The position numbers and the translations under genes are program-made. This document shows, in pieces, positions 2,115 to 36,701 of a stretch of 37,423 nucleotides of DNA (position 1 is its first letter; every line of letters starts with the position of its first letter). Below the pieces are notes generated by a model. It saw only the letters and a program-made list of their open reading frames with translations. It had not been told where the DNA came from and did no database searches. The stretch is taken from positions 1 through 37,423 of IMG/VR virus record IMGVR_UViG_3300006118_000020, one strand, 5' to 3'. The stretch comes from a virus (taxonomy: Duplodnaviria > Caudoviricetes).

Positions 2115-2121
2115 AATGTAT

Positions 2122-2472
2122 TTATTCTTCCTTAATACCTGTAAATTTGGCTAATGCCTGAGCAAATGCTTGCTGTTTCATTTCAATCTGATCTTTACTA
2201 TCGGTAACTTCAACTTTTGCAAGCGAATTCATTACTTTGTTCAATATCAAATTGTGATATTTCATTACCAAATGAGTGTCATTTCTATTTCGTGCATCCA
2301 AAAAGTCTTCAACAAGTATTGATTGATAATCGTTACCGTTTGATTTTAATTTTACACTTTCAAGTAAACCCTCAATAGTAATTTGTTGAGTAGAACCTTT
2401 TGGTCTACCTGCGCCTTTACGAGCACCGCCCCTAGATGGTGCCTTTTTCTTTACTGTGTTAGTCTTTTCCAT
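2122..2472 (-). CDS. Terminase small subunit-like or AT-hook-type DNA-binding protein
   Basis: N-terminal RGGARKGAGRPKGS motif typical of many TerS proteins; first gene of the operon that leads, across the genome ends, to terL. Confidence 0.5.
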   Translation of the reverse strand: MEKTNTVKKKAPSRGGARKGAGRPKGSTQQITIEGLLESVKLKSNGNDYQSILVEDFLDARNRNDTHLVMKYHNLILNKVMNSLAKVEVTDSKDQIEMKQQAFAQALAKFTGIKEE

Positions 2473-2477
2473 ATGTA

Positions 2478-2497
2478 TATTTAGTGTTGATTAAATA
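2478..2497. promoter_or_regulatory. Back-to-back T4-late-like motifs: CTAAATA (minus, 2478-2484) and TTAAATA (plus, 2491-2497)
   Basis: One copy points at each of two divergent genes; the minus copy is 5 nt from ATG 2472 with no SD. Confidence 0.6.
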
Positions 2498-2517
2498 CTT
2501 GTTTGAAAGGTAAAGCA

Positions 2518-3030
2518 ATGATTGAATATTCATGGGTTCCAGCAACTGGTCCCGATATTGAAAAACTAACTGAACTCTCAGTTAAAAACTGCATGACAGA
2601 TGTAGAAACCATCTATGATGTTAAGCCCATAATTTTTACACGAAATCTTACTTTAGCCGTTGTAAATCAACATTTTACTCCTAATGAAGAATTGCTCAGT
2701 GTAGCAAAAGACAGCAACGGTACTATCTTAGCATATACATGGGCAAGTTGTAGCCAATATGCATTGTGGTCAAACGAAAAAATGCTAATAGTTAATATGG
2801 CTGACATAGAACTAACACTTCCAATCAAGTTACGAATCAAACTTGTTAAAGATATGATGTACTTGTGGGAAGAGTTTTGTAAACTATCTCAAATCCCTAT
2901 CATCTGCTCAACTACATTACGAGTTAACCAATCTGCATTCTTAAAATTACACGAGCGTGAAGGTTACCAAATTCGCGGAAGTGCTGCATATAAACGATTG
3001 AGCACGACACAAGCTACTCCTGCCAATTAG
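2518..3030 (+). CDS. GNAT-fold acetyltransferase-like protein (T7 gp13-like)
   Basis: ~170 aa with a GNAT-like pattern (PATGPDIEKL...LSVAKDSNGTILAY...AFLKLHEREGY); SD AAGGT before ATG 2518. Confidence 0.55.
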   Translation: MIEYSWVPATGPDIEKLTELSVKNCMTDVETIYDVKPIIFTRNLTLAVVNQHFTPNEELLSVAKDSNGTILAYTWASCSQYALWSNEKMLIVNMADIELTLPIKLRIKLVKDMMYLWEEFCKLSQIPIICSTTLRVNQSAFLKLHEREGYQIRGSAAYKRLSTTQATPAN

Positions 3031-3089
3031 TTGTTACCTAGATTAGAAAGCCACAAAATCATCTAGTCCTTGATAGTGCTCTTGGTGGC

Positions 3090-3524
3090 TTAACTCAAAC
3101 TAGCTCTTAACATCCACGCAAATTTCTTATGTTGACGGATACGATCTTGTGCAAAATTTGCAATATCGTCGTGTCCTTCTTCAGTCGCAACAACTTCTAA
3201 TTTTCTATAACTATTTTCCATATGCTCTTGACCTTCAAGAGCAAATTCTAATAAACTTGTTGCATCAGTGCCAAGTGCAAGTGTATCAGCTAAATCAGCC
3301 TTACTTAATATCTCATTAATAGTTTCTGGTGCAGTAACATTCAATGCACGAATTAGTTCACCCAAATCATCTTGAATACTTTCGCTGTCTTCATAAATCT
3401 TTTGCAATAGTTTATGCCAACCATAAAAGTTTTCACCAGTAATGTTAAAGTGGATACTATGTGCTCTGTAACTGTTTACAAAGTTATCACTAAATGTTTC
3501 TGTTAATTGTTCAATTGTGTTCAT
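3090..3524 (-). CDS. dps: Dps/ferritin-like DNA-protection protein
   Basis: HSIHFNITGENFYGWHKLLQKIYE...DDLGELIRAL and C-terminal HKKFAWML match the Dps signature (H-[W/F]-N-x-x-G-x-x-F-x-x-x-H...D-x-x-x-E). Confidence 0.85.
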   Translation of the reverse strand: MNTIEQLTETFSDNFVNSYRAHSIHFNITGENFYGWHKLLQKIYEDSESIQDDLGELIRALNVTAPETINEILSKADLADTLALGTDATSLLEFALEGQEHMENSYRKLEVVATEEGHDDIANFAQDRIRQHKKFAWMLRASLS

Positions 3525-5452
3525 TCTACTCTCTTGCCTTTACTGTTTCTCTTTACTATACTTACCTCAGGTAAATGTTGCTTAACTTCTTCTGGCCAAT
3601 CACCATAATTTTGAACTTCGTGTCTTACAATGTTTTCACCTTCACGATAACCACCAACTGGTTTTTTACCTGCTAATGTATTGAATAAATTTGCTTTGTC
3701 AAATTCTTCTTTATTTGGAAAAACTGTTTCTTCAGTAAGCATTTGACTTACTTCAGGAACCTTTTTTTTTGCGCTTTTACGCAATGCAGATTTTTCTGCT
3801 TTTGTTGCAGCTTCTAATTCTGATTGCAACTTATCCATTTTATTTGATAGTTCGCCTAATCTAGCTTGATGTAATTCACCTTCAGGTGTTCCATATTGAA
3901 TTTTATTTTCAAGACCATGCTGATGTAATAGATCATTTTGGTTGCCAATAATATCCATTTCTTTTCGTATTTCGCTAGGTGTTCTTGTTGTTTGTACAAC
4001 TGTTTTTTGAACAACAGGTTGAGTAACTTTAGTTATAGGTTGTGTTATTGGTTGTGCAGTAGGTACACTCATGTTAGCTGGCGGTGTATAACCTCCACCA
4101 CTACGCTTTGCCCAATCAGCAGCTTGTTGTGCTAATGGAGTAGGTTGTACTGGAATAATCTTACTTGCAGCAACTTGTGGAATACTTGGTGGTCTAGCTG
4201 CTTGACTATTAGTTGTATTAATTTGATAGGGTAGCACTGAGCGTTGACCTTCAATATTAACTGCTCGTGGATTAGTACCCATTGGAATAGTTGACGGTGG
4301 CAATGTTTGTCCTGGACCTTGAACAGTTAATGGATAATTAGCTTGTGGTTGTATTGTAGGTTGTGGAACACTTTGTGGTTGAACAGGACCTGTAACAGGA
4401 TGCGGAAAGTTTTGTTGTAATGCTGCTTGTTCTTCAGGAGATAATGAAGTAAAATTAAGATTACCTAAAGTTTTGTTTGCACTAATATCTTTAGCACCTT
4501 GAATTGCTTTGTAACCTTTTCTAATCAATGGAAGTGCAACACCTACGCCTGCTCCAACAGGTCCGCCCATTAATCCACCTAATGCGCCAGCACCCAATTC
4601 AGTTGCCCATGTATAAGGTGATTTCAAATGTTCACCAAATTGTTCACCAGCAGCTTGATATACTTGACCATTCAATGGAACATTACCTTTTGTTCGTTGC
4701 AATGCTTGAATTTGTTCTGGAGTATATGGAACCATTGAACTTTTTAACTGTTCTGTTGAAATTTGACCATTACGCCATGCATTCAATTCATCAGCAGGCA
4801 TATATGTTTCAGTTGCAGGTTGTCTTGCACTTGGTGTTTCCCAAGGTTTAATTTCAGCACCAGGTTGACTAATTGCATTACCTAATACGCCGCCTGTACC
4901 TTTTACAAATTGTCCACCGTTAGTTATTGCTTGTTTACCAACATCAGAAATAGCACCTGCAACTTTAGGAACATATGGTCCAGCGGCAGTTAAACCAGTT
5001 CCAATCATATGTTCAACATCTTGTACAGGTAATCCTGTAGATTGACTTAATGGTTGTGCTACACCATGAACAACATTACCAACACCACCCATAACTCTGT
5101 TACTTAATTCATTTTGATATGAAGGTGATTGAGTTATTCCAAGATAGTTACCAATAGGATTCTTTGGACTAGTTGTTTCTTGTTGTGCTCGTTGTGCAGC
5201 TTGTTCTGGACTCATTTGAGTACCATAATATGCTCGTGCAACAGGATATGCAAGATAGTCTAGTGCACCACTTGCAGCATTAAATCCTGTATCAGCTAAA
5301 CTAGCGACACCATGACCAAACTTAGTCAAACTACTTTCTTCTGGTTGAGGAGCAACGGTAGTTTTACCAAGAAACTTGTAAATCTTTTCTTTTGCTACTG
5401 ATGGATCTTCAGTATCAATATCATAGTGTTCGCCGTTATATTCGTAAATCAT
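3521..5452 (-). CDS. Putative ejection/internal virion protein (643 aa)
   Basis: Last of four large Gly/Ala/Gln-rich ORFs after the nozzle gene; hydrophobic GAGALGGLMGGPVGAGVG segment. Confidence 0.6.
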   Translation of the reverse strand: MIYEYNGEHYDIDTEDPSVAKEKIYKFLGKTTVAPQPEESSLTKFGHGVASLADTGFNAASGALDYLAYPVARAYYGTQMSPEQAAQRAQQETTSPKNPIGNYLGITQSPSYQNELSNRVMGGVGNVVHGVAQPLSQSTGLPVQDVEHMIGTGLTAAGPYVPKVAGAISDVGKQAITNGGQFVKGTGGVLGNAISQPGAEIKPWETPSARQPATETYMPADELNAWRNGQISTEQLKSSMVPYTPEQIQALQRTKGNVPLNGQVYQAAGEQFGEHLKSPYTWATELGAGALGGLMGGPVGAGVGVALPLIRKGYKAIQGAKDISANKTLGNLNFTSLSPEEQAALQQNFPHPVTGPVQPQSVPQPTIQPQANYPLTVQGPGQTLPPSTIPMGTNPRAVNIEGQRSVLPYQINTTNSQAARPPSIPQVAASKIIPVQPTPLAQQAADWAKRSGGGYTPPANMSVPTAQPITQPITKVTQPVVQKTVVQTTRTPSEIRKEMDIIGNQNDLLHQHGLENKIQYGTPEGELHQARLGELSNKMDKLQSELEAATKAEKSALRKSAKKKVPEVSQMLTEETVFPNKEEFDKANLFNTLAGKKPVGGYREGENIVRHEVQNYGDWPEEVKQHLPEVSIVKRNSKGKRVE

Positions 5453-5453
5453 T

Positions 5454-7388
5454 TTAATCAGTAATCTTTATAGGATTTTCTCTAGTACCTGGCTTATGTT
5501 TATTAAGTACAGGATTCTCAGCTTTACCACCTGTAGTCTGTTGCTCAGTTGCATAACGCTGTGTTCTTTCCAATGCTGCTCTAGCTTTAGTTAACCAATA
5601 CTTAGTATATTCTGGATCACTAGTTTCTGTAGGTTTATTTTCAGTTAAGAATTGTAATTCTTGGTTAGTTAAGTGACCTTTAATTGTACCTTGACTTAAT
5701 ACGCCACCGATACTACGAACTGTATCCATAACTGCTTTAGTATTTCTTGCACCTTCAGTGTTAAGTTGAGTTCCAACTGCTTGACCGATTGGACCGCCGC
5801 CACTTAATGTACCAGCAACCATTGGTCCAATATTGTGTTTACCACTTGCAAGAATATCTAATGAATGGTCAATGTCAGTAATTGTGTTTGCTGCGCCTGC
5901 TGCACCAGCAACATTCTGTCCAGCAACTTTACCAACTTCTTTGCCACTTTCAACTCGTGCAGCTTTTTCAGCTTCAAGTTCATATCCAGTTGGACGAGCA
6001 TTATTTGCTGGTGGGTTAGTAATTGCTGCAGGTCTTGTAACAGTTGATGGTTCTACTGGTTTATTAACCACTACTGGTGCTGGTGCTGTTGCTGCAGGTT
6101 TATTTGCACTCACAGTATTACCTCCACCAATTTGCGGAACACGAATTCCAACTTCCGCAGGTTGAACTGGAGTATAACCTTGTTGAACAAGCATTTGATT
6201 GTAAGGACGCAAGATTTGCATTTGTTCTTCAATGCCTTTGCCTTGAAGTTTAATGTTCATTTCTTGTATTGCTCGTGCTCTCATGTCATTCATAGTACCC
6301 ATACTTGATTGTGGGCGCCATCCTGTCATACTAGTACGACCTGCGTCAGTTTGAATATAACTGCGACCAGTATTTTTATCACTAACCACACGACCGACTT
6401 CACCAGTTCTATCGTTAACATAAGTGCCTCCAACAATGTCAAGTTTTTGTCCTTGATTTGCTGCTGCACTAATCAATTCACTTGGATTTAGTTTTTGTCC
6501 AGTTGTTGAATTAAAGCCACTTAATGGTGTTCCATTCGCAGCCATTTTAATCATGTATGCTTCACCGTTAGGTCCATTGACTAATGTTTCTTTACCAATA
6601 CCTAACTTAGCAGCTTCTGATTGAGCACTGTTTTGCATACCTAGCAAACCATAAGCAATTGCTTTGAACCACGAACCGCCTGTTGTCTTTTCACGAAGTG
6701 CTTTTTCCAATTCAGTTGGACCCATTGTTTGCAATTGTTGTTCAGCTTGTTTTTTTTGACGATCATTAATTAAAATGTCTGCTGCTCTTTCTCTTGCATT
6801 GTCTTTTAACCATTGTGGTGCATTTTGACTTTGACTTAACTGCAACAATTGACCTGGATCATTTTGATATTGTTCATATTGTGTTAAATGTTGTTGCTCA
6901 ACAGTTCCAGCCAATGGATTACTCAACTGTTGTTGTGCAGCAGGAACATTGTTTTGAAATTGTTGTTGAACTTGTGGAGTTGCTTGAATACCTTGACCAC
7001 TCATTTGTTGTGGTTGTTGTATTTGTTGTGGTTGTTGTGGTTGCTGTGGCAAATTAGGCAATTGTTGTGTATTGCCTGCAACTTGAACGCCTTGACCAGC
7101 TTGTGGCTGATTAAACTGTGCAGGATTCACTGGAGCAACAGGACTAGCTGGAGCCTGTTGCATAGTGTTTTGCATAGGTTGTGGCATTTGCTGAGTTTGC
7201 GTATTTTGCAAATCCATAGGACTAACAGGTCCACTACTTGTGTTAGTGTTAGGCATCTGAATTGGGTTTTCAGTTGTTTCACCTGGAGCTGGATTATAAC
7301 TTGAACCAAATAGTTGTTGCTGTTGTTTCTTTTTCAATTCTTCATCTGTAGAATCGTTTTGTAATGTGTTAAGATCAGGTGTGAACAT
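5454..7388 (-). CDS. Putative ejection/internal virion protein (644 aa, Gln/Pro-rich N-terminus)
   Basis: Position in the podovirus ejection cluster; low-complexity, helical composition. Confidence 0.6.
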   Translation of the reverse strand: MFTPDLNTLQNDSTDEELKKKQQQQLFGSSYNPAPGETTENPIQMPNTNTSSGPVSPMDLQNTQTQQMPQPMQNTMQQAPASPVAPVNPAQFNQPQAGQGVQVAGNTQQLPNLPQQPQQPQQIQQPQQMSGQGIQATPQVQQQFQNNVPAAQQQLSNPLAGTVEQQHLTQYEQYQNDPGQLLQLSQSQNAPQWLKDNARERAADILINDRQKKQAEQQLQTMGPTELEKALREKTTGGSWFKAIAYGLLGMQNSAQSEAAKLGIGKETLVNGPNGEAYMIKMAANGTPLSGFNSTTGQKLNPSELISAAANQGQKLDIVGGTYVNDRTGEVGRVVSDKNTGRSYIQTDAGRTSMTGWRPQSSMGTMNDMRARAIQEMNIKLQGKGIEEQMQILRPYNQMLVQQGYTPVQPAEVGIRVPQIGGGNTVSANKPAATAPAPVVVNKPVEPSTVTRPAAITNPPANNARPTGYELEAEKAARVESGKEVGKVAGQNVAGAAGAANTITDIDHSLDILASGKHNIGPMVAGTLSGGGPIGQAVGTQLNTEGARNTKAVMDTVRSIGGVLSQGTIKGHLTNQELQFLTENKPTETSDPEYTKYWLTKARAALERTQRYATEQQTTGGKAENPVLNKHKPGTRENPIKITD

Positions 7389-7391
7389 AAA

Positions 7392-8129
7392 TTATAGACC
7401 CATTGCGCTGAATAAACTACCAAGTCCACTAGATGTAATATTAGTTCCAGTAGTGTTTGTAGATTGCGTACCATTAAAGTTCGCACCATAGCTAGTTGAT
7501 GGAGCACCATACATTGCGCTTAACAATGAATTGTTAAATGCCATTGGAACTTCACTTGCATTGACAACATTTTGTGCAGCACCTTGTGCACCTGTCAATC
7601 CATTTTGTCCTAATGCAGCTAATTGATTTGCTGCACTTGCTCGTTGTTGTGCGATTTGGTTTTCAACAGTTGCAGCAGTATTAGCTTGTGTTGCTTCATT
7701 CATACCAGCAAGTTGTTGACCTGCTAATGCTTGACGAGCACTACCTAATTCACCACTACCACCAAACTGTGCTTGTTGATTTGCTAAGTTCTGCATATAT
7801 TGTGCTTGTGCAGGTTGTAATGCAGCAGCAACTTGATTTGCTTCATAATTTGAACCAAATAAGTTTTCTAGTCCACTTACACCTGTATTCAATGCACTTT
7901 CGCCAGTTTGACCTAAAGTGTTTTGTGCTTGACCAGAAACACCAGCCATATTCTGTGCAGCGTTTTGAACGCCAGGTGCACTTTGATTATATTGTGTTTG
8001 TGCGCTACTAATTCCCTGTTGATATGCAGGAATAATTGTGCCAGTAAGCATACCTGTCTGTGCTGACAAGTATTGATTTTGCTGTGGAGACAATGTTGGT
8101 ATTGTCGTTGAAGTTGTTTTACCACCCAT
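7392..8129 (-). CDS. Putative DNA ejection/pilot protein (P22 gp7 or T7 gp14-like)
   Basis: MGGKTTST start, Gln/Ala-rich helices, FGGSG...SAR motif, Gly-rich hydrophobic C-terminus. Confidence 0.65.
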   Translation of the reverse strand: MGGKTTSTTIPTLSPQQNQYLSAQTGMLTGTIIPAYQQGISSAQTQYNQSAPGVQNAAQNMAGVSGQAQNTLGQTGESALNTGVSGLENLFGSNYEANQVAAALQPAQAQYMQNLANQQAQFGGSGELGSARQALAGQQLAGMNEATQANTAATVENQIAQQRASAANQLAALGQNGLTGAQGAAQNVVNASEVPMAFNNSLLSAMYGAPSTSYGANFNGTQSTNTTGTNITSSGLGSLFSAMGL

Positions 8130-8158
8130 GATGGAATCCTTTTATCTATTTAGTTGTT

Positions 8159-9808
8159 TTATTTTGGTGCGATTGGAGCTGATACAGTGTTGCTTAACTC
8201 TGGATAATAGTTTTGCATTGCTGATAAAATATCTTGTGCTGAAGGAGCACTAGTTGCTTCTTTAACGCCCCAAGGTTGTGCTGGAGCATTTGTTAAAGTA
8301 TTATACAATTGTGGATTGAAGGTTGGTCCAGGTTGATATGGATGCATTCCCCAATAGTACTGACTTTGTGCTGGAGTTTGTTGTTGCCAATATGGAACTG
8401 GGCTAATCCAGCCCGGGTTCAATCCTGTCGGAACATTAATGCCAGGTAGATTTGCGCTTGGAACAGTTACATAATTTAATTGATCTGGCGAAGTTGTGTT
8501 TGTAGGTGTTACAATTGGAATAGGAGGAGTTGTGTTTGCTGTATCACTTGCAACCTTACTTGTGTTATCAGGAATAACTGTTTGTGTAGGTGTACTCAAT
8601 GGAGTTGGAACAACACTTGTATCTGGTGGAAGTTTACTTGCAGTTACATTTACAGTTCCTATATCTGTTGGATTTGATGTTGTACCAGTACCAGTACCTG
8701 TACTATTTCCAGTGCCTATGCTTGCAACAGGACCCACAACAACATTAGTATTAGGAACGCTAGGTCCACTTACTGGTGTAGCTTCTACAGGAGCAACACT
8801 ATTTGAACTTGTTTGTCCTGCAGGAGGTGTAATAGTTGTTGGTTGAACTGGACTTAATTCAGTTGTTCCAGTTCCAGTTCCATTTCCTGTAGCGCCTGTA
8901 GGTTCTGCACCACTAGTTCCAGTTCCACTAACATCAATTCGTGTAGCACCATTTTGTACAGGGTATTGATTACCACTTGCATCAGTCCATGTTTTACCAT
9001 CACTGCTATAACCATTTTCACCTGGTGTAACTGTTTGTGGTTGAGCATCAGTAACTGTTGTTCCATCTTTATAAGTGTAAGAAACAGTTTTTAAACCATT
9101 ACCATCAGTAGTTGTATTAGTATAAGCTAATGGAGAACCACTATTATCTTTTTCCATTGAATCTTGTGGTGTTGCTGGAAGTTCATTAGTATTACTTGCA
9201 ACTTGAACGCCTGGTTCATTTGTATTAATTGCTGGGCTTACAATAGTTCCACTACTGTCAACAACATTACCACTACTATCCATAAAGTGTCCGCCACCAA
9301 TGTCAAGCATGCCTGCTGTTGGATTGTTAACATAACCTGTTACACCACCAGCAGCTCCGCCTGTTAATGCTCCATTTAATATTCCATTACCAAGATTTGT
9401 TCCAGTAATAAATGCACCTGTGCCACCTGCGGCTGCTCCTGCGGCTGCACCTTGCAATGCAGTATTTGCAACACTACCTAATCCTGAATCAGCTAATGCA
9501 TTACCAGCGGCTCCACCTGCAACGCCTGCAGCACCACCCATTGCAGCACCAGTTAATGCACCTTTAACAATGTCTCCACCATTACTTGCTGCTCCTGCTG
9601 CGCCACCTAATGCTCCTGCATATACTGGAGGAATACCTGCAGCAATAGATCCAACTGTAACAATCGCTTGAACAGGGTTATTAACAACTGACTGAACAGC
9701 ACTGCCTACAGCGTTACCAACAGTGTTAATTGCTGAACTAACTGTATCAACTGCTGTACTTGCTACCTGTTCAACTGCGTGAGTAATTCCACTAACGATT
9801 CCACCCAT
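8159..9808 (-). CDS. Putative ejection protein with glycine-zipper membrane-interacting N-terminus
   Basis: MGG start; long GAxxG/GxxxG repeats at about residues 45-160; Thr/Pro-rich remainder. Confidence 0.6.
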   Translation of the reverse strand: MGGIVSGITHAVEQVASTAVDTVSSAINTVGNAVGSAVQSVVNNPVQAIVTVGSIAAGIPPVYAGALGGAAGAASNGGDIVKGALTGAAMGGAAGVAGGAAGNALADSGLGSVANTALQGAAAGAAAGGTGAFITGTNLGNGILNGALTGGAAGGVTGYVNNPTAGMLDIGGGHFMDSSGNVVDSSGTIVSPAINTNEPGVQVASNTNELPATPQDSMEKDNSGSPLAYTNTTTDGNGLKTVSYTYKDGTTVTDAQPQTVTPGENGYSSDGKTWTDASGNQYPVQNGATRIDVSGTGTSGAEPTGATGNGTGTGTTELSPVQPTTITPPAGQTSSNSVAPVEATPVSGPSVPNTNVVVGPVASIGTGNSTGTGTGTTSNPTDIGTVNVTASKLPPDTSVVPTPLSTPTQTVIPDNTSKVASDTANTTPPIPIVTPTNTTSPDQLNYVTVPSANLPGINVPTGLNPGWISPVPYWQQQTPAQSQYYWGMHPYQPGPTFNPQLYNTLTNAPAQPWGVKEATSAPSAQDILSAMQNYYPELSNTVSAPIAPK

Positions 9809-9828
9809 AATTTTATCCTTTTTTGTAT

Positions 9829-13398: not shown

Positions 13399-13419
13399 AA
13401 TGTTGTTCCTTTACTATAT

Positions 13420-13559
13420 TTAACTGAGTAGAACCGCTGAGTAATTTGCTAAAATGAATCTTTTTTTTTATAATTTTTTTTATAAAAATATTTTTTTTTA
13501 ATTTAGTCAAAAAAAAGCGTTTTACTCAGTGGTTCTACTCAGCATTTCTACTCAGTTAA
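13420..13559. promoter_or_regulatory. Putative replication origin: inverted iteron arrays around an A/T-tract core
   Basis: CTGAGTA at 13424 and 13437; TACTCAG at 13523, 13536 and 13549 (13-bp period); ~75-bp nearly pure A/T core; immediately downstream of the helicase gene. Confidence 0.75.
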
Positions 13560-16436: not shown

Positions 16437-16437
16437 A

Positions 16438-16605
16438 TTATATTCCCAATCTAATAATCTCGTCAAGAATGTTTTCTACTTCTTGATCCCAAACCGCGAA
16501 TAACTTAAAATCATCTAGTTTAAGATAATGTTCTCTAAAGCCAATAGCGTTTTCTAGTTCCGTGTCAAGACGGATCAGTGTTAATAAACTTAAATCTTTA
16601 CTCAT
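16438..16605 (-). CDS. Small hypothetical protein MSKDLSLLTLIRLDTELENAIGF... (55 aa; not in ORF track)
   Basis: Translated by hand; SD AAGGA; first gene of the replication operon. Confidence 0.7.
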   Translation of the reverse strand: MSKDLSLLTLIRLDTELENAIGFREHYLKLDDFKLFAVWDQEVENILDEIIRLGI

Positions 16606-17635: not shown

Positions 17636-17641
17636 AAGATC

Positions 17642-22869: not shown

Positions 22870-22877
22870 TTTGATCC

Positions 22878-28367: not shown

Positions 28368-28385
28368 AATTGTATTTATCAATAG

Positions 28386-28411
28386 AAAAAGGGGCCCGAA
28401 GACCCCTTTTT
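28386..28411 (-). terminator. Intrinsic terminator with C(UUCG)G loop
   Basis: Minus strand reads AAAAAGGGGTC-TTCG-GGCCCCTTTTT. Confidence 0.85.
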
Positions 28412-28414
28412 GTG

Positions 28415-28534
28415 TTAACCTTTATATTTTAACATAATTTTTAGAATAAATCGTTGCCACCAATTATATTGTTTAGCTTTACTAAGAATAGTTTTAATTT
28501 GATTATCTAATTCTTGCTCATTTGGATGTTTCAT
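28415..28534 (-). CDS. 39-aa moron peptide MKHPNEQELDNQIKTILSKAKQYNWWQRFILKIMLKYKG (not in ORF track)
   Basis: SD AAGGA, own promoter and flanking terminators. Confidence 0.6.
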   Translation of the reverse strand: MKHPNEQELDNQIKTILSKAKQYNWWQRFILKIMLKYKG

Positions 28535-28550
28535 TTCATTTCCTTGTATT

Positions 28551-28572
28551 AAAAAGCCCTTTCGGGCTTTTT
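28551..28572 (-). promoter_or_regulatory. Leader hairpin AAAAAGCCC-GAAA-GGGCTTTTT (attenuator or boxB-like)
   Basis: Perfect inverted repeat between the promoter and the SD of the moron ORF. Confidence 0.65.
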
Positions 28573-28590
28573 ATTTATTACCGTATTAGT

Positions 28591-28675: not shown

Positions 28676-29848
28676 TTAATATGTGCTACCAGCACCAGTA
28701 TTAGTACGAGATACCAAGACAGATGGACGAGCACCTGGCAAGTTAGCTTGTTGATCTGTACCGGCTTTGATGTTGTTTAGAACACCAACGCCTGCTGGGT
28801 TACGAACGATCAATGTACCTTCCATGATGAACTGATCCAAACTAGCATCAGCATTACTGAATACTTCGTTGTTAGGACCTAGATCACGCAATGAACCCCA
28901 TTGTACAACATCTTCGTTTAAGAAATAGATGCTGTTACTTACACCAGACTGATCCATGATCCAAGAATCAAAGATTTCGTATGAGTAATTGAAGTCACCT
29001 TCGTAAGTAGCGATTGTGTCACCACGCTCACTGTTTACGCGGTTGATACCACGAGATTGTGCGATGTTATCGCTGATGCTTGTACGCAATGATGTTGGAG
29101 CAACAACAGTACGAATCTTAGCATTATAGCGTTGTTCAGCAACAGTTACCAATTGCTTGTACAATGCTGGGCTAAACAATTGGTTAGTGAAAGTACCTGT
29201 GTAGAAGTTACTACCATTTGCACTGATTGCAAATGTGTTAGTTTGTTCACTAGCACTATCGCTAGACTCATCGTTTGTCCATGTGTTCAATCCACTCAAT
29301 GTACCACTAGTAGTATTGTATGATTGTGTACCAGCGAATGAAGCTAGTGAACCCATACGACGGCCAGTTTGACCACTTGGTAGACCACTTGCAGAACCAG
29401 ATTGTCCACCGTATTTTGTACCGATTTGGTCAGCACGAACTAGTTGTGATTCAACATCAAACATCAATTCAATCAATTGCTTGACTTCTTGATATGCTTG
29501 AGGATCACCACCAGATTGCATAACTGCACGAGCTGTTCCAGATGCAGCAATAACTGTACTGAAAATTTGTGTGTAGTTACCTAAGTTGTAACGACTATTT
29601 GACTCAGCTTGTGAAGTTGCAACTGTAGCACCTTCAACTTGAGCTTGAACTGCAGGCAAGCGATAAACATCGTCTGTCCACAATGGTAAAGTACTGTTAA
29701 CTTTACGCTTTTTGCTCATTGCCATGTTCAATACAGGCGTATCATCTTTCACACGATTAGACACATCCAGGTCTAAGTCTTTGACAACGATATCTGCGCC
29801 ATAAGCTGTTGTACCGTTACCAATTTGGGATGTCGTAATTTCTGCCAT
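28676..29848 (-). CDS. Major capsid protein (DUF5309/SU10-like)
   Basis: 390 aa after the scaffold; DTPVL, WTDD, EGA, NYTQIF...SGTA, RRMG and EGTLIVRNP motifs; strong SD AAGGAG; terminator follows. Confidence 0.9.
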   Translation of the reverse strand: MAEITTSQIGNGTTAYGADIVVKDLDLDVSNRVKDDTPVLNMAMSKKRKVNSTLPLWTDDVYRLPAVQAQVEGATVATSQAESNSRYNLGNYTQIFSTVIAASGTARAVMQSGGDPQAYQEVKQLIELMFDVESQLVRADQIGTKYGGQSGSASGLPSGQTGRRMGSLASFAGTQSYNTTSGTLSGLNTWTNDESSDSASEQTNTFAISANGSNFYTGTFTNQLFSPALYKQLVTVAEQRYNAKIRTVVAPTSLRTSISDNIAQSRGINRVNSERGDTIATYEGDFNYSYEIFDSWIMDQSGVSNSIYFLNEDVVQWGSLRDLGPNNEVFSNADASLDQFIMEGTLIVRNPAGVGVLNNIKAGTDQQANLPGARPSVLVSRTNTGAGSTY

Positions 29849-29879: not shown

Positions 29880-31037
29880 TTATCTTCCCCCTCTTGAGGC
29901 TCTAATTTTATTTAGTTGCGCCATCAAAAGGTTGTCTGCGGCTTTCTTATCACCGCTCTTGGCTTGTTCACGAAGTTTGGAAATATCATCTCCACTACCA
30001 CGACTACTACTTGAACTATTGCGTCTTTGAGTTAATGCAGCCATACTAGACCCAGCAGGTTTAGTAGTTGGCTTATCTCTATAGCGTAACCCATCTCTGA
30101 CTAAGCTCATTAATGCTTCATCACTTGAGATCAAGTCAATATTTGGAATTCCAGGTACAACTTCTGTTTTAGCATCAGGCCAAATCTTAGCAACTTTATC
30201 TCTAATTTCGTTATAGACATATTCGTTTTTTAACTCTTTGTCCTTAAAATTTTTACGAGTAGCTTCTAATACTTGACTCACTTGCTGTTTACGAATGTTC
30301 CTGAACTCATCAACCGCAGGCTTTAGTGATCCTATAGTCTGTTGTTGTTGACGAATATACTGTTCATTTTGTTGCATACTTGCTTGAATCCTTGCAATTG
30401 TTGCTGGATCATTAGTTTGTTGCAACTGTTGTTGAAAAGTCGTTTGATATTGTTGAGTTTTATAAATCTCATCATACGCCTGTTTCATTTGTGGCTGAAT
30501 AGTAAATTCCATCGCAAGAGTTAACCCCTCTTGACGATTGCGAGTTTCTTTGAGATACTCATCAAACTCGGCTCGTTCAATTTTCAATTGTCGTGCGTCT
30601 TCGCTGATCGCTGCACCTTGACCTAATATACTAGCTGCCTTTTTAGCATCAATTACAACTTCTTTACCATTACGCATAAACTTGAACTTAGCGTTCGGAT
30701 TAGTTTCTGCAAAGTCTAAGAAATCAATAAGTTCTTCTGTTGTTGAATCAGTACTATCAGCAGTTACCTCTTCAGGGCTGTCTGTTTCTTGATTTGGCTC
30801 GTCAATATATTTGTTCTCTGGTTCAGAGATTTCTGGTCCATCATCTGGCGCCACAGGGCTTGAAGTTTCTGCCGATTCTTCACTACCTGTCTCAGTCTGT
30901 TCAGTAGCACGAATTTGATTACGCAGTGTGTGTTCACGCATTGCGGTCATTTTAGCAGCTATGGAGTCTAAACTAGGGACTGCATTTGTTTCAGGTGCCG
31001 CAGCAGTTGTGCTGTTAGGGCTGATATCATTTGTCAT
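29880..31037 (-). CDS. Capsid scaffolding protein
   Basis: Acidic N-terminus, KFMRNGKEVVI motif, long coiled coil, basic C-terminus; lies between portal and capsid. Confidence 0.8.
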   Translation of the reverse strand: MTNDISPNSTTAAAPETNAVPSLDSIAAKMTAMREHTLRNQIRATEQTETGSEESAETSSPVAPDDGPEISEPENKYIDEPNQETDSPEEVTADSTDSTTEELIDFLDFAETNPNAKFKFMRNGKEVVIDAKKAASILGQGAAISEDARQLKIERAEFDEYLKETRNRQEGLTLAMEFTIQPQMKQAYDEIYKTQQYQTTFQQQLQQTNDPATIARIQASMQQNEQYIRQQQQTIGSLKPAVDEFRNIRKQQVSQVLEATRKNFKDKELKNEYVYNEIRDKVAKIWPDAKTEVVPGIPNIDLISSDEALMSLVRDGLRYRDKPTTKPAGSSMAALTQRRNSSSSSRGSGDDISKLREQAKSGDKKAADNLLMAQLNKIRASRGGR

Positions 31038-31391: not shown

Positions 31392-31429
31392 TTCATTTCC
31401 TTAACCTATTATGTATTTATCAATTAAAA

Positions 31430-33715
31430 TTAACGATATACTTTAGGATTTCCTGCAGCCATTGCCATGTAGTCTAACTGTGTTCCAGCATCTTGTCCTG
31501 CAACTTGAAGTTTAACTTCCTGTGCTTTAACTTGATTCAATTGAGCTTGACTCAAATCTTTCTGTTCAGCAGGAGTTGGTTGTCGTTGTGCAGCAGCTTG
31601 TTGACCCTGTTTAATCATTTGTACAACTTCGTCATCAGTTGGCAAATAAACATCACAATCTTTGATACCCAAAACATACAATGTGTCAGCAAATGGTTTC
31701 TTAACTTTCTTATACATTTCTGGTGTCAATGTTCCTTGTTGGACCATACCTTGAACCATAGTATATAAGTCAGTTTGACATTTCTGAATAACTTGTAATC
31801 GTGCTAATGCGTTTTCTTCACTCATCATACCTAATGCTAGTTCCAAATGAACTTGTTTTCTATCACAAAAGTTCATATCGTCCCATGCATTGTAATCTAA
31901 GAATTCAGGCTTCTTGTCTGGATTAAATTTTTGTGCTAATTTCTTAACACCATAATCATCGCCATACTGAATTAATGTACGCCATACCAACCAAATAGCT
32001 TCACGCAATCCTTCTGCTGCATTACGCACACAGTTATCTTGAATCAATTGGTTAGGTGAAAGAGCAAGTTGTAGTTTAGCACCACTATTACCTTCAGCCA
32101 TAATTTCTGGATTGAACACATCTTGTGGAGTGGTCATACCAACCATAGCCATTGTATCTTGTTGGATACGATTCATAGCTGCTTCTAAGAATTGCAAGTT
32201 ACCACTAGGAGGAGGAATTTGGTAGATGTCCTTTGCAGGATCAAATTTACTATCTAAAATAAAGATAGCACTTTCGCCGTCTTGAATCATTTCAAAGTCT
32301 AGTTTGTCGGGTTTAACCCCGATTCTTGGTGTTGCGGTTAATAGACCTAGTTGAATCTCAGCACGGGCTGCACTTGTATTATACTCTTGCATTGGAATCA
32401 CAGATTCAGCAATACTCATACCATAGAAGTTACCTGGTAATGGTTTTGGACACATATTAGCAACAGGAATAAACTCTACTTCTCTTGCACTAATAATATA
32501 TTGACCACTATAAATGATTTCAACTAATTCAAGTTCACCATCACCATCAATGTCATACTTGTTCCATACTGTAACAACACTAACCATTCTACTATCTGGA
32601 TCAGCACTTGCAGCACTAGAAACAGGCACACCCATAACAGGTACACTATCACGAGCGTGAATAGCTAAGTTGTTTAATACACTACCTGCTTGATAAGCAC
32701 CATTCATATTGTATTCAGCGAATTCTTCAAATTCTTCTAAATCAATACCTGGATATAGTTCTGTTGCTTCTTGAATTGTCATTGGATCATAGTAACCACA
32801 GAAAGGTTGATCTTTCATCTCTGGCACTGTAGGATCACAAATCCAAAAGTGTTGTGCAATAGGATGAAACTTAATGTTAATGTTGTAACCAGTCAATTTA
32901 TATTTTGCTGAGTAAACACTGTTGCGTTTAATTGCATCATTCAAAATTTCTTGTTCACCATCATATAACTCTGTGTTCATACCTGACATGTCGCCAGCCA
33001 TGTTTTGAGTTAAGTCATCTTCATTGTCATGTTCTTTAAGTTTGTTAACAAAGTTTTCAATAACACCATCAGCAGTTTGAACTCGTTGCTGACTTGTTTG
33101 GTGTTGTACTTCTGCTAAAACTTTTGCTAAATTAATATCAATGCGTCTACGACTTTGACGCAATGCTGTAAGACCTGCATCTGCTGCTTGTTGTTCAAAT
33201 GCTTTTAGTTGGTCTAATGTACCTTGTGTTTCAACATAACGGGTGATTTGTTCACGAACTGGCTTAATCATCATCATGCCGTTTTTGTGCATACAAGCGT
33301 CCATAATCCAACGCTCTAATATAAAATGTGGATCATTCATTTCATTGACAACACGACTGACCATTTCAGTTGCTTGTCGTGCTGCTTCTTCATCATCTTC
33401 ATTGTCCGCAACAAATTCAAAATTGATTTCGCCTGCGGGCATTAATCCTTTAGCGATAACAGCAGTTGCGTAATCCACAACGGGCTTGACACTAGGATGA
33501 ATGTAATCAATACCATTGACAGGGGCAGTACTATCAGTAACAGCAAGACATAGGTAATGGTAATCTGAGGCTCTGTTGACGGCATTTTTTGTCCCCAAGT
33601 AACGAAGATACGACGCCATTTTCGTATCCATCTGATTTTTCATCTTTACGAATCTAGCATTTGTACTTTTATTTTTATTGATATCCCTTACTGGGATGTT
33701 CTTTATATCCAACAT
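31430..33715 (-). CDS. Portal protein (P22-like)
   Basis: 761 aa after terL; EDDEEAARQAT, YDIDGDGELE, PLPGNFYGMS and Gln-rich C-terminal barrel. Confidence 0.9.
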   Translation of the reverse strand: MLDIKNIPVRDINKNKSTNARFVKMKNQMDTKMASYLRYLGTKNAVNRASDYHYLCLAVTDSTAPVNGIDYIHPSVKPVVDYATAVIAKGLMPAGEINFEFVADNEDDEEAARQATEMVSRVVNEMNDPHFILERWIMDACMHKNGMMMIKPVREQITRYVETQGTLDQLKAFEQQAADAGLTALRQSRRRIDINLAKVLAEVQHQTSQQRVQTADGVIENFVNKLKEHDNEDDLTQNMAGDMSGMNTELYDGEQEILNDAIKRNSVYSAKYKLTGYNINIKFHPIAQHFWICDPTVPEMKDQPFCGYYDPMTIQEATELYPGIDLEEFEEFAEYNMNGAYQAGSVLNNLAIHARDSVPVMGVPVSSAASADPDSRMVSVVTVWNKYDIDGDGELELVEIIYSGQYIISAREVEFIPVANMCPKPLPGNFYGMSIAESVIPMQEYNTSAARAEIQLGLLTATPRIGVKPDKLDFEMIQDGESAIFILDSKFDPAKDIYQIPPPSGNLQFLEAAMNRIQQDTMAMVGMTTPQDVFNPEIMAEGNSGAKLQLALSPNQLIQDNCVRNAAEGLREAIWLVWRTLIQYGDDYGVKKLAQKFNPDKKPEFLDYNAWDDMNFCDRKQVHLELALGMMSEENALARLQVIQKCQTDLYTMVQGMVQQGTLTPEMYKKVKKPFADTLYVLGIKDCDVYLPTDDEVVQMIKQGQQAAAQRQPTPAEQKDLSQAQLNQVKAQEVKLQVAGQDAGTQLDYMAMAAGNPKVYR

Positions 33716-33740: not shown

Positions 33741-33881
33741 TTATTTATTCTTTTTAGATTCGTCACTTTGCTGGGACTTTTTTTCTTCTTTGACATCTTT
33801 TTTGCCAAAGATTTTGTCCCAGTTACTACTAAATTGTTCTTTTGGAATCTCAATTGGTCTAGCTCTACTTCCTTTTCCCAT
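33741..33881 (-). CDS. Small protein MGKGSRARPIEIPKEQFSSNWDKIFGKK... (46 aa; not in ORF track)
   Basis: Translated by hand; SD AGGAG; GKGS.xRP...NWD.IF is a common small phage protein type. Confidence 0.75.
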   Translation of the reverse strand: MGKGSRARPIEIPKEQFSSNWDKIFGKKDVKEEKKSQQSDESKKNK

Positions 33882-33893
33882 ATATTCTCCTAA

Positions 33894-35504
33894 TTAGCTT
33901 GGGTCATACGCTTGTTTCCAAGCTGGTTTATGACTATAATCCCTAGTAATATATCTATCTCGTTGTGCTCTCATTCGTTGAGCAGGAGTACGATTGTCCC
34001 AAGGTTCTGCAATATTATTTAATATTCCTAAAATACCATAACGACAGCTATCAATGCAATCGTCAGGATCACTAAAGCGTCCCTTTTCATCAACGAAATA
34101 GTTCTGTGCTTCACTTAAAAAATGTGTACAATTTTCATTAATCATTAAACTACCAACTTCTAACATCTGACGCATTTGGTTGATACCATATGCTTTGTGG
34201 TTAGTTACCCTACCCTGACTATCAGGTGGATTCATTATTGGCTTTTCGTAAACATTAAGTTCATAATTCTCAAACAACTCTCGTATACTACTACTGGACA
34301 TTGTGTATCTTCCAGGTGAACTAGCATCCGATGGTAAAACGATAGGCGTTCCAAATACTTCGGGTCTGAGAAGGTGATTGATATATTGAGTTGGTACGGC
34401 TTCTTCAGTACCTTGTATAACAATCTGCTTATGTAAATATGCAGTTCTTTCATGTGGTTCCCAATACATTAAACTGATAACAGTTTTATCATTTACAAGT
34501 CCTAAGTCAAGCGCAATGATTCTATGAATATTATTCATTTCCTCAAAGTTGTAATCGCCAGTTTTGTATGTGGGCCAATTACTCAATTGGAACACAGCAC
34601 CTTTACCCATAACAGGTTTACCTGCGATACGAGCTTCACGCTCATGTGGTAAGTAATCTCGTTCTAATTGTCTACGAGTTTCCATTAGTAAGAATGGTTG
34701 ATTCCATGGATCATACTCAGGTACATCATCCCAACTTACACGAATATACTCGTATCCTTCTTCCCTGTTCCAGAACTTACTTACTAGACCATTCAAGCCT
34801 TTTAATGGCGTGAAAGAGCATAATACTTTACCTTGCGTTGTAGCAGTACGAGTAACAATTTCACTAAAGAAATCATCTGGTGGCTGCTCATCAAACACAG
34901 CTAAGTTTAACTTGAAACCTTGAAGTTGTCTTACTTCCTGTGTATAGTTTGCGAATAGCAAATAACTTTTGGAACCTGACACATGTTTGATCTCAACTCC
35001 GATGCAATTAGCGCCGTCGTTACGCATAGTATCAGTAATAATACATTCTCTGGGAATTGCACCTGTGCCAATGTTCTCTGTTATTTTAATATCTTGCGTG
35101 CCTAGTAATTCATTTTGTAATACTAATGCAACCTGACTCCAGCCCTCACCTGCAACCATGCAAGTGATAGCTTGTTCAAAACGATAACCTTTCCACCAAT
35201 CAGGATATAATCCAGTAAGATGCATTGCTGTTTCATAGCAGGTACTAACTGTTTTACCAATACGGTTTGCAGCTAGAATACCTCTACGCTCACTAGTTCC
35301 AGTTTTGAAAAACTTTAACTGATGTTCAAAAGGTCTAAAGTATTTAAGCTGATTATAATGCATATCATCAGCCACACTAATGACCAAGTCCTCTAATTGC
35401 TTTTTAGCAGGACCTGGTAATATGTTCAAACTATCAGTTTTAAGTTTATACTTGTCAAGAACATATTTTAACGCTCTCGCCATTAGCGTTTCTGTTCCTA
35501 ACAT
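33894..35504 (-). CDS. terL: Terminase large subunit
   Basis: Walker A AANRIGKT, Walker B AVFDEQP, FTPLKG coupling motif, nuclease ALDLG and DDCIDSCRY. Confidence 0.95.
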   Translation of the reverse strand: MLGTETLMARALKYVLDKYKLKTDSLNILPGPAKKQLEDLVISVADDMHYNQLKYFRPFEHQLKFFKTGTSERRGILAANRIGKTVSTCYETAMHLTGLYPDWWKGYRFEQAITCMVAGEGWSQVALVLQNELLGTQDIKITENIGTGAIPRECIITDTMRNDGANCIGVEIKHVSGSKSYLLFANYTQEVRQLQGFKLNLAVFDEQPPDDFFSEIVTRTATTQGKVLCSFTPLKGLNGLVSKFWNREEGYEYIRVSWDDVPEYDPWNQPFLLMETRRQLERDYLPHEREARIAGKPVMGKGAVFQLSNWPTYKTGDYNFEEMNNIHRIIALDLGLVNDKTVISLMYWEPHERTAYLHKQIVIQGTEEAVPTQYINHLLRPEVFGTPIVLPSDASSPGRYTMSSSSIRELFENYELNVYEKPIMNPPDSQGRVTNHKAYGINQMRQMLEVGSLMINENCTHFLSEAQNYFVDEKGRFSDPDDCIDSCRYGILGILNNIAEPWDNRTPAQRMRAQRDRYITRDYSHKPAWKQAYDPS

Positions 35505-35845
35505 TATTCACTTTCTACTGGATAATGTTGGTTAATGATTGAAAGATAATATAATCCATGACATAAATCATGTATCTCGCTTGCAGTACATTTCCATGTT
35601 TCTGGATCACTTAAATCAGTTGGTTTATTTGTTAATATTGCCTGCAGTCTTTCAGCAGTCAATCTCATGCAATGTTCAACTTGACCAGGAAATCTTGTTT
35701 TGAAAGCATCACGATGAAGTTTGTTGACCTTTTGTAAAATGAGTGTATCTTTTACTTGTCGTTCTTGTGTTGCTTTATCAATTTCTTGGTCACGAGGTGT
35801 TCGCAATGGAACCTTGCGTTCATTTCCATCTTTATCTACTATCAT
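35504..35845 (-). CDS. Hypothetical protein directly upstream of terL (alternative TerS candidate)
   Basis: Coupled to both neighbours (ATGA at 35842-45, TAATG at 35504). Confidence 0.6.
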   Translation of the reverse strand: MIVDKDGNERKVPLRTPRDQEIDKATQERQVKDTLILQKVNKLHRDAFKTRFPGQVEHCMRLTAERLQAILTNKPTDLSDPETWKCTASEIHDLCHGLYYLSIINQHYPVESE

Positions 35846-36642
35846 TTTAGATCCCATGGGTTACTTGCAACACTGTCATTCAATGAAACAAATTCACGAT
35901 CAATCCATACTTCCCATTGATTAGTTTTGTTAACTTTGAATGTTTGCATAGTTGCACGAAGACGCTTACCTTGTTGTGTTAATGTGCCATCTTCACGCAT
36001 CAATACTTGTTCACCTGTGCGCGGATCAATCCATTTGATATATTCTGGACGAACACGACCATACTTGTCAATTTTTTCACCTTCAGGCTTTTGCTCTAAT
36101 GGTCCCATGATTTCATAGCTAATCATGCCATTGTTATATTTACGGAACATAACTTGAACCTTTTTGCCTTGTGCTCGTTGTTCTTCATCAGGGTGTGGGA
36201 TGAATGGACTATAGAAAGCATTTTGTTGTTGTTCTCTAGCAGGCAATGACTTGTCTCTTGCTGGTTCAGGCTTCAAGTCTTCTGTAGGAATTAATTCAGC
36301 TTTGTCAATATATGGGTTATTACCACCAATGTATTTACTATCAATGTCTTTACCATTGAGTACATCCATTGCTACTTGATACTTGACTTGGTTAGCACGA
36401 CCTTTCAAATTTAATGTGACACCTGTCTCATCAAATACAAATCGTTCTAAGTCTTTTGCTGTTGGAAAGTCAGTCATCAAACCTTCAATATCAAAGTCAG
36501 GATGACTAATTAATTTTGGTGATTGTGGTTTGTTTTTGGGAGTTTTGACTGGAGTAGTATCTTCTACTGTCTTTTTGAATTCTTCTTTTGCCTGTTCTGG
36601 CGTGTCCCAAATGTTTTCGGATGCTGCGTTTTGTTTTTTCAT
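35842..36642 (-). CDS. Hypothetical protein (266 aa)
   Basis: Likely start MKKQNA at 36642 with SD AAGGA. Confidence 0.75.
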   Translation of the reverse strand: MKKQNAASENIWDTPEQAKEEFKKTVEDTTPVKTPKNKPQSPKLISHPDFDIEGLMTDFPTAKDLERFVFDETGVTLNLKGRANQVKYQVAMDVLNGKDIDSKYIGGNNPYIDKAELIPTEDLKPEPARDKSLPAREQQQNAFYSPFIPHPDEEQRAQGKKVQVMFRKYNNGMISYEIMGPLEQKPEGEKIDKYGRVRPEYIKWIDPRTGEQVLMREDGTLTQQGKRLRATMQTFKVNKTNQWEVWIDREFVSLNDSVASNPWDLK

Positions 36643-36663
36643 TTCATTTCCTTTTCTATAAAC

Positions 36664-36688
36664 AAAGAGAAGCATTGTGCTTCTCTTT
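36664..36688 (-). terminator. 11-bp hairpin (terminator or leader hairpin)
   Basis: AAAGAGAAGCA-N3-TGCTTCTCTTT; ATAAATA abuts it at 36689-36695. Confidence 0.65.
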
Positions 36689-36701
36689 TATTTATCACAA
36701 A

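Follow-up and report, generated by a model that had tools for sequence, protein, structure and literature searches.

The window analysed here is a stretch of 37,423 nucleotides (nt) that comprises a whole phage record, IMGVR_UViG_3300006118_000020 of IMG/VR, and hosts the genome of a small podovirus. Boxes with the sequence TAAATA are found shortly upstream of many of its genes. Quite probably the boxes serve as late promoters for a gp55-type sigma factor supplied by a co-infecting jumbo phage related to T4, and we infer that the podovirus is a virion-complete satellite depending on a helper. A wider reading, held with slightly less confidence, still looks probable: the phage would represent an abundant family of freshwater podoviruses that cede late transcription, DNA synthesis and lysis to T4-related jumbo phages. 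These would be bacterial virophages wired to gp55, derived from or sister to autonomous podoviruses, and endowed with a late small RNA that blocks ribosome binding sites in the mRNAs of the helper or in their own.

TAAATA boxes in the window

An original prediction had named 16 heptamers, in which TAAATA is preceded by A, C or T, as copies of a T4-type late promoter. All 16 are present, at the right place and on the right strand. The corresponding TAAATA boxes are listed below.

2119 to 2124, minus strand: box 4 nt before the ATG at 2114, overlapping the stop codon of the upstream gene
2478 to 2483, minus strand: box 5 nt before the ATG at 2472, no Shine-Dalgarno (SD) sequence
2492 to 2497, plus strand: divergent box, about 20 nt before the core gene 2518/2521-3030
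8147 to 8152, minus strand: box 17 nt before the ATG at 8129, with SD
9826 to 9831, minus strand: box 17 nt before the ATG at 9808, with SD
12674 to 12679, minus strand: box 23 nt before the ATG of a tail gene at 12650
13417 to 13422, minus strand: box 18 nt before the ATG at 13398
16737 to 16742 and 16701 to 16706, minus strand: two boxes, with a structured leader and then the primase-helicase operon downstream
17786 to 17791, minus strand: box of a candidate small RNA, overlapping the stop codon of a holin-like gene
28373 to 28378, minus strand: box 5 nt before the ATG at 28367, no SD
28572 to 28577, minus strand: box with a GC hairpin, an SD and an open reading frame (ORF) of 39 amino acids (aa) behind it
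29909 to 29914, minus strand: box within the scaffold ORF and 60 nt ahead of the capsid ATG
31414 to 31419, minus strand: box 22 nt before the ATG at 31391
33742 to 33747, minus strand: box 26 nt before the portal ATG
36689 to 36694, minus strand: box 46 nt before the ATG at 36642

The short spacings to the ATGs at 2114, 2472 and 28367, on which the prediction had laid stress, are confirmed (4, 5 and 5 nt). The expected enrichment over background is also found. Of 40 hand-curated genes, 11 have TAAATA in the 45 nt before their start; when the same 45-nt windows are shuffled 2000 times the mean is 3.3 and the maximum 10, and 0/2000 shuffles reach 11. The best anagram, ATAAAT, which overlaps the TAAATA motif, is found in 7/40 upstream windows. 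The genome as a whole is depleted of the word, which occurs in 30 copies on the two strands versus 56.3 +/- 7.3 in dinucleotide shuffles.

It had been cautioned that five copies overlap stop codons, and this is correct (2119, 9826, 12674, 17786, 33742). Stop codons do not account for the boxes, because only 2 of the 31 TAA stops in the window continue as ATA. The five overlaps and a GC content of 36.5% would suit the notion that the motif merely results from stop codons and from intergenic DNA rich in A/T. The probability left to it is negligible, given the outcome of the composition-matched shuffles, the sharp peak of boxes 5 nt before the ATG, the GC-matched control offered by a sister clade and the depletion of the word within genes on both strands. 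Chance or stop-codon artefacts were discarded by the shuffles, the sister control and the avoidance seen upon codon shuffling.

Two arrangements are worth reporting for themselves. TAAATA boxes at 12666-71 (plus strand) and 12674-79 (minus strand) are set back to back on opposite strands, forming a near-palindrome before the tail gene. The region 28408-28577 (minus strand), located between two terminators after the capsid gene, is made of TAAATA, the GC hairpin, the SD and the unannotated 39-aa ORF.

Register, spacing and avoidance of the box in the family

A search of IMG/VR with the capsid protein retrieved 565 stretches, the best 80 of which, plus the window, make up the family set. Genes of the relatives were called by an own ORF/SD script, and single start positions may therefore be wrong. 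When hexamers are ranked in the 1210 distinct upstream windows of this set, CTAAAT is at rank 2 and TAAATA at rank 7 of 4096, among SD words. The box is strongly oriented, with 252 sense versus 39 antisense copies in the family upstream windows.

Distances from box to ATG fall into two peaks, one at 5 nt (76 sites, 74 of which without SD) and one at 19-29 nt. Spacings of 4-7 nt are found in 11 protein clusters across 11 complete genomes. The T4 late box TATAAATA spans positions -13 to -6 (PMC1524935). A 5-nt gap would therefore set +1 on the A of the ATG, and the leaderless peak fits the T4 late register. From -25 to -14 the upstream profiles are rich in A/T but have no other conserved column, and no second conserved element is seen from -25 to +2. 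Archaeal TATA boxes and sigma-28 or sigma-54 promoters were dropped as candidates, the main peak being located 5 nt before the ATG and the profile lacking a second element.

Within genes the box is avoided. When synonymous codons are shuffled within genes, 10 family genomes turn out to retain TAAATA at 0.25 of expectation in the sense direction and 0.19 in antisense; the corresponding values for the window are 0.46 and 0.14. Avoidance on both strands is the pattern produced by selection against stray promoters. As far as sequence can tell, the promoter network is real and under selection. The view of the motif as a -10-only promoter of the T4 late type is thus upheld by register, leaderless peak, both-strand avoidance within genes and absence in the sister clade.

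A lone TAAATA -10 box might be read by a sigma factor of the host, to which both the jumbo phages and the small phage would have adapted, the host alone being sufficient. Leaderless -10-only promoters occur in some bacteria, and a GTDB prophage/host search gave only two matches, both short contigs in metagenome bins. Housekeeping sigmas, however, require T-12 and A-11, whereas setting +1 at the ATG places a T of the box at -11 and leaves -12 variable. Moreover, no second element accompanies the box between -25 and +2, the jumbo phages that carry it encode gp55, and what the sister clade avoids is not TAAATA but TATAAT, the signal usual in hosts. Reading by the host alone is accordingly regarded as improbable.

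A sister clade as natural control

A second clade (MW202484 and 80 loci) hosts orthologous virion genes, its capsid being about 61% identical. The box is found upstream of 278/1281 genes in the family versus 24/1296 in the sister clade, and upstream of 82/484 versus 18/838 genes when GC is matched (41-47%). The same holds for single orthologues. The box precedes 72/75 portal genes in the family versus 0/64 in the sister clade, 59/71 versus 0/80 copies of the 187-aa gene, and 17/21 versus 1/42 copies of the gene 2518/2521-3030. Two distant cultured podoviruses with 59% GC feature the box before 1/68 and 0/61 genes. In six sister genomes codon shuffling gives TAAATA at 0.85 (sense) and 0.70 (antisense) of expectation; TATAAT (0.29) and TAAAAT (0.18) are avoided instead.

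The clades differ also in gene content, with 56-66 called genes in sister genomes versus 33-43 in the family. A scan of 33 shared sister proteins identified SSB (single-stranded DNA-binding protein), Sak/Erf, RusA, a DnaB-like helicase, an O-like initiator, endolysins and a spanin. Thirteen sister proteins (endolysins, spanin, SSB, Sak, Erf, RusA, DnaB, O-like, MazG and three of unknown type) match 0/11 family genomes, while 7-12 of the same 13 match each of 7 sister genomes. Two endolysin family profiles similarly match 0/22 family versus 15/20 sister genomes. Accessory family ORFs shorter than 620 aa (123 scanned) encode interchangeable primase/helicase modules, methyltransferases, glycosyltransferases, homing nucleases and one helix-turn-helix (HTH) protein; no polymerase, sigma, integrase or endolysin was found among them. 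In the terminase tree one long branch divides family from sister clade (97/97); the outgroups are too distant to root the two clades, and the older state cannot be read.

Primase/helicase modules of different families (DUF5906, VapE-like, Prim-Pol) have been swapped among relatives, as seen in the accessory regions of G001, G003, G017, G018 and G022, and several complete family genomes have no recognisable replication gene.

Search for a reader encoded by the phage

Window bases 1-112 are identical to 37021-37132, and the main contig runs on from 37132 into window base 113 in 4/4 runs. The genome is a closed circle of 37,020 bp and is complete. Because the circle is closed, the absence of a reader does not result from missing DNA. 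The segment 37133-37423 is a low-depth variant tail appended past the circle, and may stem from a minority strain whose accessory gene is longer here.

PHROGs and Pfam profile scans of 40 window ORFs found terminase, portal and capsid of SU10 type, proteins of tail and fibre, a Dps-like protein, primase, helicase, an HNH gene and, with a weak match only, a holin. No sigma, gp55, gp33, gp45, RNA or DNA polymerase, integrase, SSB or endolysin was detected among these 40 ORFs. A T4-type gp55 profile matched 0/5 and 0/26 records, the 26 being 24 family records, one bin and MW202484, and a jumbo-type gp55 profile 0/22 near-complete family genomes. An own hidden Markov model (HMM), built from seven jumbo gp55 proteins plus T4 gp55 and run unfiltered on 25,831 frames, gave a best E of 0.16 outside the controls, and E < 1e-56 for both positive controls. 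Comparison of the profiles of 21 clusters with gp55 yielded probabilities of at most 1.3%. The claim that no self-encoded sigma or gp55 is recognisable thus withstands gp55 profiles, own HMM and cluster comparison alike.

The phage could nonetheless be autonomous, and encode an unrecognised TAAATA reader such as a highly diverged sigma or a specificity protein binding RNA polymerase. Most small ORFs are unannotated, the opposite-strand orphans at 16848-17635 lack TAAATA and could be early genes, and the model of the 266-aa core protein, which is conserved, is of low confidence (pLDDT 47); its sole match in a fold search is an uncharacterised relative, with no sigma among the matches listed. 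For the 161-aa orphan (16848-17333, plus strand; 24 homologues) the model has pLDDT 85.5 and combines a small beta domain with a coiled-coil hairpin. This model had no Foldseek match at E <= 0.001, only generic coiled-coil similarity (best Z 7.2), and no sigma among the matches listed. No usable match for either protein was found in the ESM Atlas. Against an own reader stands the finding that the genes common to all 11 complete genomes are only virion and packaging genes and a few small ones: no gene outside the virion/packaging block is shared by all, and the early orphans are found in 1/11. Core genes of unknown function sit behind TAAATA or in the virion block, and the 266-aa protein has an orthologue in the TAAATA-less sister clade. 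The cluster comparison with gp55 points the same way, and the joint absence of endolysin, SSB and recombinase would be left unaccounted for. An own factor that escaped recognition is therefore rated unlikely, though less so than reading by the host alone.

Jumbo phages as candidate helpers

The C-terminal repeats of the tail fibres are found at 78 loci, 10 of which on contigs over 100 kb. A gp55 of about 300 aa is encoded by 9/14 larger records tested, including 5/5 near-complete ones (349-525 kb). Among the matches listed, the cultured phages whose late sigma comes nearest to it (36-42%) are MIJ3 and PA5oct of Pseudomonas, Phosso of Sinorhizobium and jumbo phages of Rak2/CBB size. TAAATA lies upstream of 73/470 genes in jumbo G031 and of 68/405 in jumbo G028. 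In these two phages 24 and 27 sites, respectively, are at 4-7 nt, none with SD; a second peak is at 16-25 nt, and the flank profile of the boxes is similar to that of the family. Within genes, TAAATA is reduced to 0.25-0.52 (sense) and 0.19-0.32 (antisense) of expectation. Of the promoter-pocket residues of T4 gp55, N13, F86, Y97 and T99 (4 of 7) are identical in 7/7 jumbo proteins, and R57 is K or R.

Profiles of gp33 and of the gp45 C-terminal domain match 0/5 jumbo phages, although diverged forms could escape detection. Because neither was detected in 5/5, clamp activation in the T4 style may not apply. In jumbo phage CBB, ATAAATA is reported to precede structural genes, and a gp55-like gene to be present with neither gp33 nor gp45 detected (PMC5259590); T4 gp55 by itself sustains basal transcription (PMC7892883). 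The T4-like helper originally proposed is retained for its gp55-type late box, and is amended in that the best candidates are T4-related jumbo phages of about 350 kb and not T4 proper, no gp33 or gp45 having been detected. The helper could also be a different T4-like phage whose boxes read CTAAATA or ATAAATA.

Infection would begin with a virion reaching the same host as the jumbo phage via related fibre repeats, and the DNA of the small phage would wait unintegrated or enter alongside the helper. Helper gp55, acting on host RNA polymerase, would open the TAAATA promoters and give rise to leaderless and SD-led mRNAs. Replication would be started by the own primase and helicase at an iteron origin (13420-13559), with borrowed polymerase and SSB. 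A late hairpin RNA may pair with SD and AUG, blocking translation starts, and the endolysin of the helper would release both viruses.

Several points weigh against dependence on a jumbo sigma. Jumbo gp55 departs from T4 at L54, H95, D74 and E77. C occupies position -12 in 48% of family sites, A in 63% of G031 sites. The box is found directly upstream of the capsid gene in 6/79 cases and of the terminase gene in 0/66 in the family, so that read-through from upstream promoters is needed for most of these genes. Matches to the two jumbo phages involve 28/421 family proteins but also 12/360 sister proteins, and because sister proteins match too, gene sharing does not name the helper. This sharing of genes with the two jumbo phages is modest and non-exclusive, and fibre repeats are spread widely. 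Tyrosine integrase (PF00589) was detected in 0/22 family genomes, as in 0/20 of the sister clade, which leaves unexplained how the DNA meets its helper. The clade contrast is a single evolutionary comparison; the 80 loci per clade are related, and their counts are not independent events, while the 13 marker proteins were drawn from sister genomes, which biases the gene-content test. Finally, most small ORFs have no family match.

Other resemblances between the two groups of phages have been noticed. A stretch shared by jumbo G028 (L258 5277-5903) and a family member (L044 5366-5992) measures 630 nt at 80% identity and suggests recent gene exchange. A protein of about 88 aa (cluster 19, e.g. 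L105 14459-14725), found in 6/11 family genomes, is 30-37% identical to a jumbo protein (L229 13558-13854), and the window gene 33741-33881 has a jumbo homologue. In G011 a 162-aa protein encoded beside the small RNA (L097 8461-8949) shares its first 10 residues with the SSB (phrog_1192) of both jumbo phages, and is, in this single case, a possible mimic of the N-terminus of helper SSB. As to a CRISPR link, a simple repeat scan found no array in the two jumbo phages, the window or the family loci, and the 46 strongest of 3046 blastn rows are gene-length matches of 66-85% identity.

A candidate small RNA, a likely origin and the primase operon

17711 to 17782, minus strand: candidate small RNA of 72 nt behind the box 17786-91, with a long terminal stem followed by a U-tract, z -3.85
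13420 to 13559, no strand assigned: likely replication origin, inverted iteron arms of 21-24 nt around an A/T tract, directly after the helicase gene

Scanning the loci for TAAATA plus a terminal stem gave 20 distinct matches. GCCAT is found inside 13 and TCCT or TTCC inside 17 of these, and none of these words was part of the scan criteria. The alignment includes 17 sequences, since L170, L277 and L315, having none of the words, were dropped. The stem is 92% paired and 9/11 pairs show changes on both sides, in sequences selected for having a stem. The resulting model detects, at E <= 0.02, 7/11 complete family genomes, six of them being training sequences, and 0/7 sister genomes and 0/2 jumbo phages. 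Further copies are found e.g. at L009 20796-20868, L029 17374-17456 and L093 8676-8761. The terminal stem opens with UGUAG, GCCAU is often located in the hairpin loop, and UUCC(UUU) follows 9-17 nt later. In the window, Rfam gave nothing at gathering score, and nothing at E <= 1 for 17550-17900. The RNAs are thus a candidate new family, positioned behind a TAAATA box.

GCCAU and UUCC(UUU) are the reverse complement of a start region of the type AAAGGAA..AUGGC. Since these words complement SD and AUG, the candidate RNA likely acts as an antisense blocker of translation at SD plus AUG-GC starts. Duplex ranking singled out no individual target, as the leading matches are all generic AAGGA..ATGGC starts. 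The starts of jumbo SSB and tail-sheath genes rank in the top 7 of both jumbo phages, and the own gene 16848 is first in the window.

The region 13420-13559 is the likely origin in light of its repeats, and similar inverted arms are found after the helicase gene in 3/3 relatives examined (L085, L086, L087). The primase-helicase operon was thought to be switched on by the helper, and two boxes do lie upstream (16701, 16737), but so does a sigma-70-like site scoring 11/12 (16466..16437, minus strand), and control of the operon by the helper is no more than possible. This sigma-70-like site is not kept in relative G001, and the number of sigma-70-like sites in the region is that expected by chance (26 vs 27.2).

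The phage might in principle be a facultative parasite, replicating slowly with host sigma-70 and host replication proteins, the boxes serving to boost output or time the escape when a jumbo phage infects. It has indeed kept primase, helicase, origin and a holin-like gene, and sigma-70-like sites precede the primase operon. Their chance-level frequency, the lack of a detectable endolysin in 22 genomes and the leaderless position behind the box of core genes, the terminase small subunit-like one included, make a facultative life improbable, about as much as reading by the host alone.

Gene content of the window

ATG at 2114, minus strand: 52-aa basic protein, box 4 nt upstream
2122 to 2472, minus strand: core 116-aa gene with N-terminus GGxRxGAGRPKG, presumably on this account the terminase small subunit; leaderless start in 9/11 complete genomes
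2518/2521 to 3030, plus strand: core gene, acetyltransferase-like by inspection, no profile match; box about 20 nt upstream
3090 to 3524, minus strand: Dps/ferritin-like protein, core (11/11 complete genomes)
3521 to 12650, minus strand: likely internal/ejection and tail proteins (PHROGs)
10743 to 12650, minus strand: virion structural protein (phrog_3287)
13562 to 15343, minus strand: primase-associated helicase (DUF5906, phrog_1156)
15340 to 16272, minus strand: primase-like protein (phrog_9765, phrog_2135)
16848 to 17635, plus strand: two orphan genes without TAAATA; TATAAT 17 nt before the ATG at 16848, not picked up by the promoter scan
17785 to 18012, minus strand: holin-like gene (phrog_689, E 5e-4)
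18703 to 26227, minus strand: tail-fibre-like genes with TTNAQPNI repeats in common with jumbo phage fibres
27804 to 28367, minus strand: core 187-aa gene, leaderless
28676 to 29848, minus strand: major capsid protein (SU10_MCP)
31430 to 33715, minus strand: portal (SU10_portal)
33894 to 35504, minus strand: terminase large subunit (Terminase_6N)
35842 to 36642, minus strand: core 266-aa gene with a sister-clade orthologue

By annotation, the set of particle genes is complete, with own capsid, portal, terminase, tail and fibre. A tRNA search of the window found none. All 13 runs holding at least half of the words of the window, of 24 runs listed, are freshwater metagenomes; among the 24 listed, no RNA run holding the window appears.

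Comparison with known systems

Late boxes described in phages of the T4 family are TATAAATA in T4, CTAAATA in Aeh1 and ATAAATA in CBB and GAP32 (PMC1524935, PMC5259590, PMC7892883). The boxes reported here have the same core word and, judging by their distance to the ATG, would take the same -11 to -6 register; as in those phages, no -35 element is recognisable, the profile from -25 to -14 having no conserved column. In T4-family phages, however, promoter and sigma reside on one genome, whereas here the promoter is found in a 37-kb podovirus without detectable gp55. The hallmarks of T4-like phages, i.e. own gp55, gp33, gp45, DNA polymerase and contractile tail, were not found in the window.

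The Streptomyces satellites MiniFlayer and MulchRoom have own capsid and packaging genes and depend on a virulent helper, and MiniFlayer features short podovirus-like fibres and no integration module (PMC10690885). Own capsid and lack of integrase liken MiniFlayer to this phage; primases are missing in the two satellites, while a primase-helicase pair is encoded here (PMC10690885). The words promoter, sigma and polymerase are absent from the main text on MiniFlayer and MulchRoom (PMC10690885). A satellite lifestyle is thus broadly known, and dependence on a late sigma would be the new part. No Streptomyces phage is found among 15 capsid matches in 50,697 records.

A literature search, the coverage of which excludes most subscription journals, found no phage described as using the late sigma of a helper. 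Known phage satellites steal capsids or tails. Borrowing of the sigma or transcription type by a virion-complete parasite has so far been described for virophages of giant eukaryotic viruses. If the proposal is true, building a whole particle and borrowing the sigma of a helper is a different kind of parasitism. Many small, seemingly ordinary podovirus contigs in freshwater viromes would then represent parasites of jumbo phages. This would matter for the ecology of jumbo phages, and for the question of why podoviruses of this kind go uncultured.

Virophages such as Sputnik and mavirus have an own virion, genes of the primase-helicase type and genes placed behind the late promoter of the helper, read by the helper machinery. 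They are non-tailed, infect eukaryotic hosts, and have a jelly-roll capsid and an FtsK-type ATPase. By analogy, the phage resembles them in own virion, own primase-helicase type genes and genes behind a late promoter of apparent helper type. Unlike virophages, it is a tailed phage with SU10-type capsid, portal and terminase, and would borrow one sigma acting on host RNA polymerase.

Likeness to PICI, cf-PICI, P4 and PLE lies in a primase-helicase with a nearby origin, here 13562-16272 and origin-like repeats (PMC10690885); own primase and helicase are variable or undetected in some relatives. PICI, P4 and PLE integrate and take capsid or tail from the helper, while this phage has own particle genes and no detectable tyrosine integrase (PMC10690885). 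A cf-PICI has an own capsid, an integrase and no tail genes; here tail and fibre genes are present and integrase was not detected. PLE activation depends on helper transcription through cues that are unknown (PMC13595925). The small RNA SviR, encoded by PLE and acting on helper mRNAs (bioRxiv 2022.04.08.487710), is a precedent for a satellite small RNA such as the candidate at 17711-17782. Judged by sequence features, the phage belongs to none of these groups, i.e. virophages, MiniFlayer group, PICI, cf-PICI, P4 and PLE.

Close to this phage are also the sister podoviruses (MW202484, IMG/VR G040-G061, and more distantly RHph_N2 and pCB2047-A), in which orthologues of its capsid (61% identity), portal, terminase and tail genes follow one another as they do here. 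They differ in measuring 40-43 kb, in encoding own endolysin, SSB, recombinase, RusA and DnaB, and in having no TAAATA network, and provide a ready comparison for the loss or gain of autonomy.

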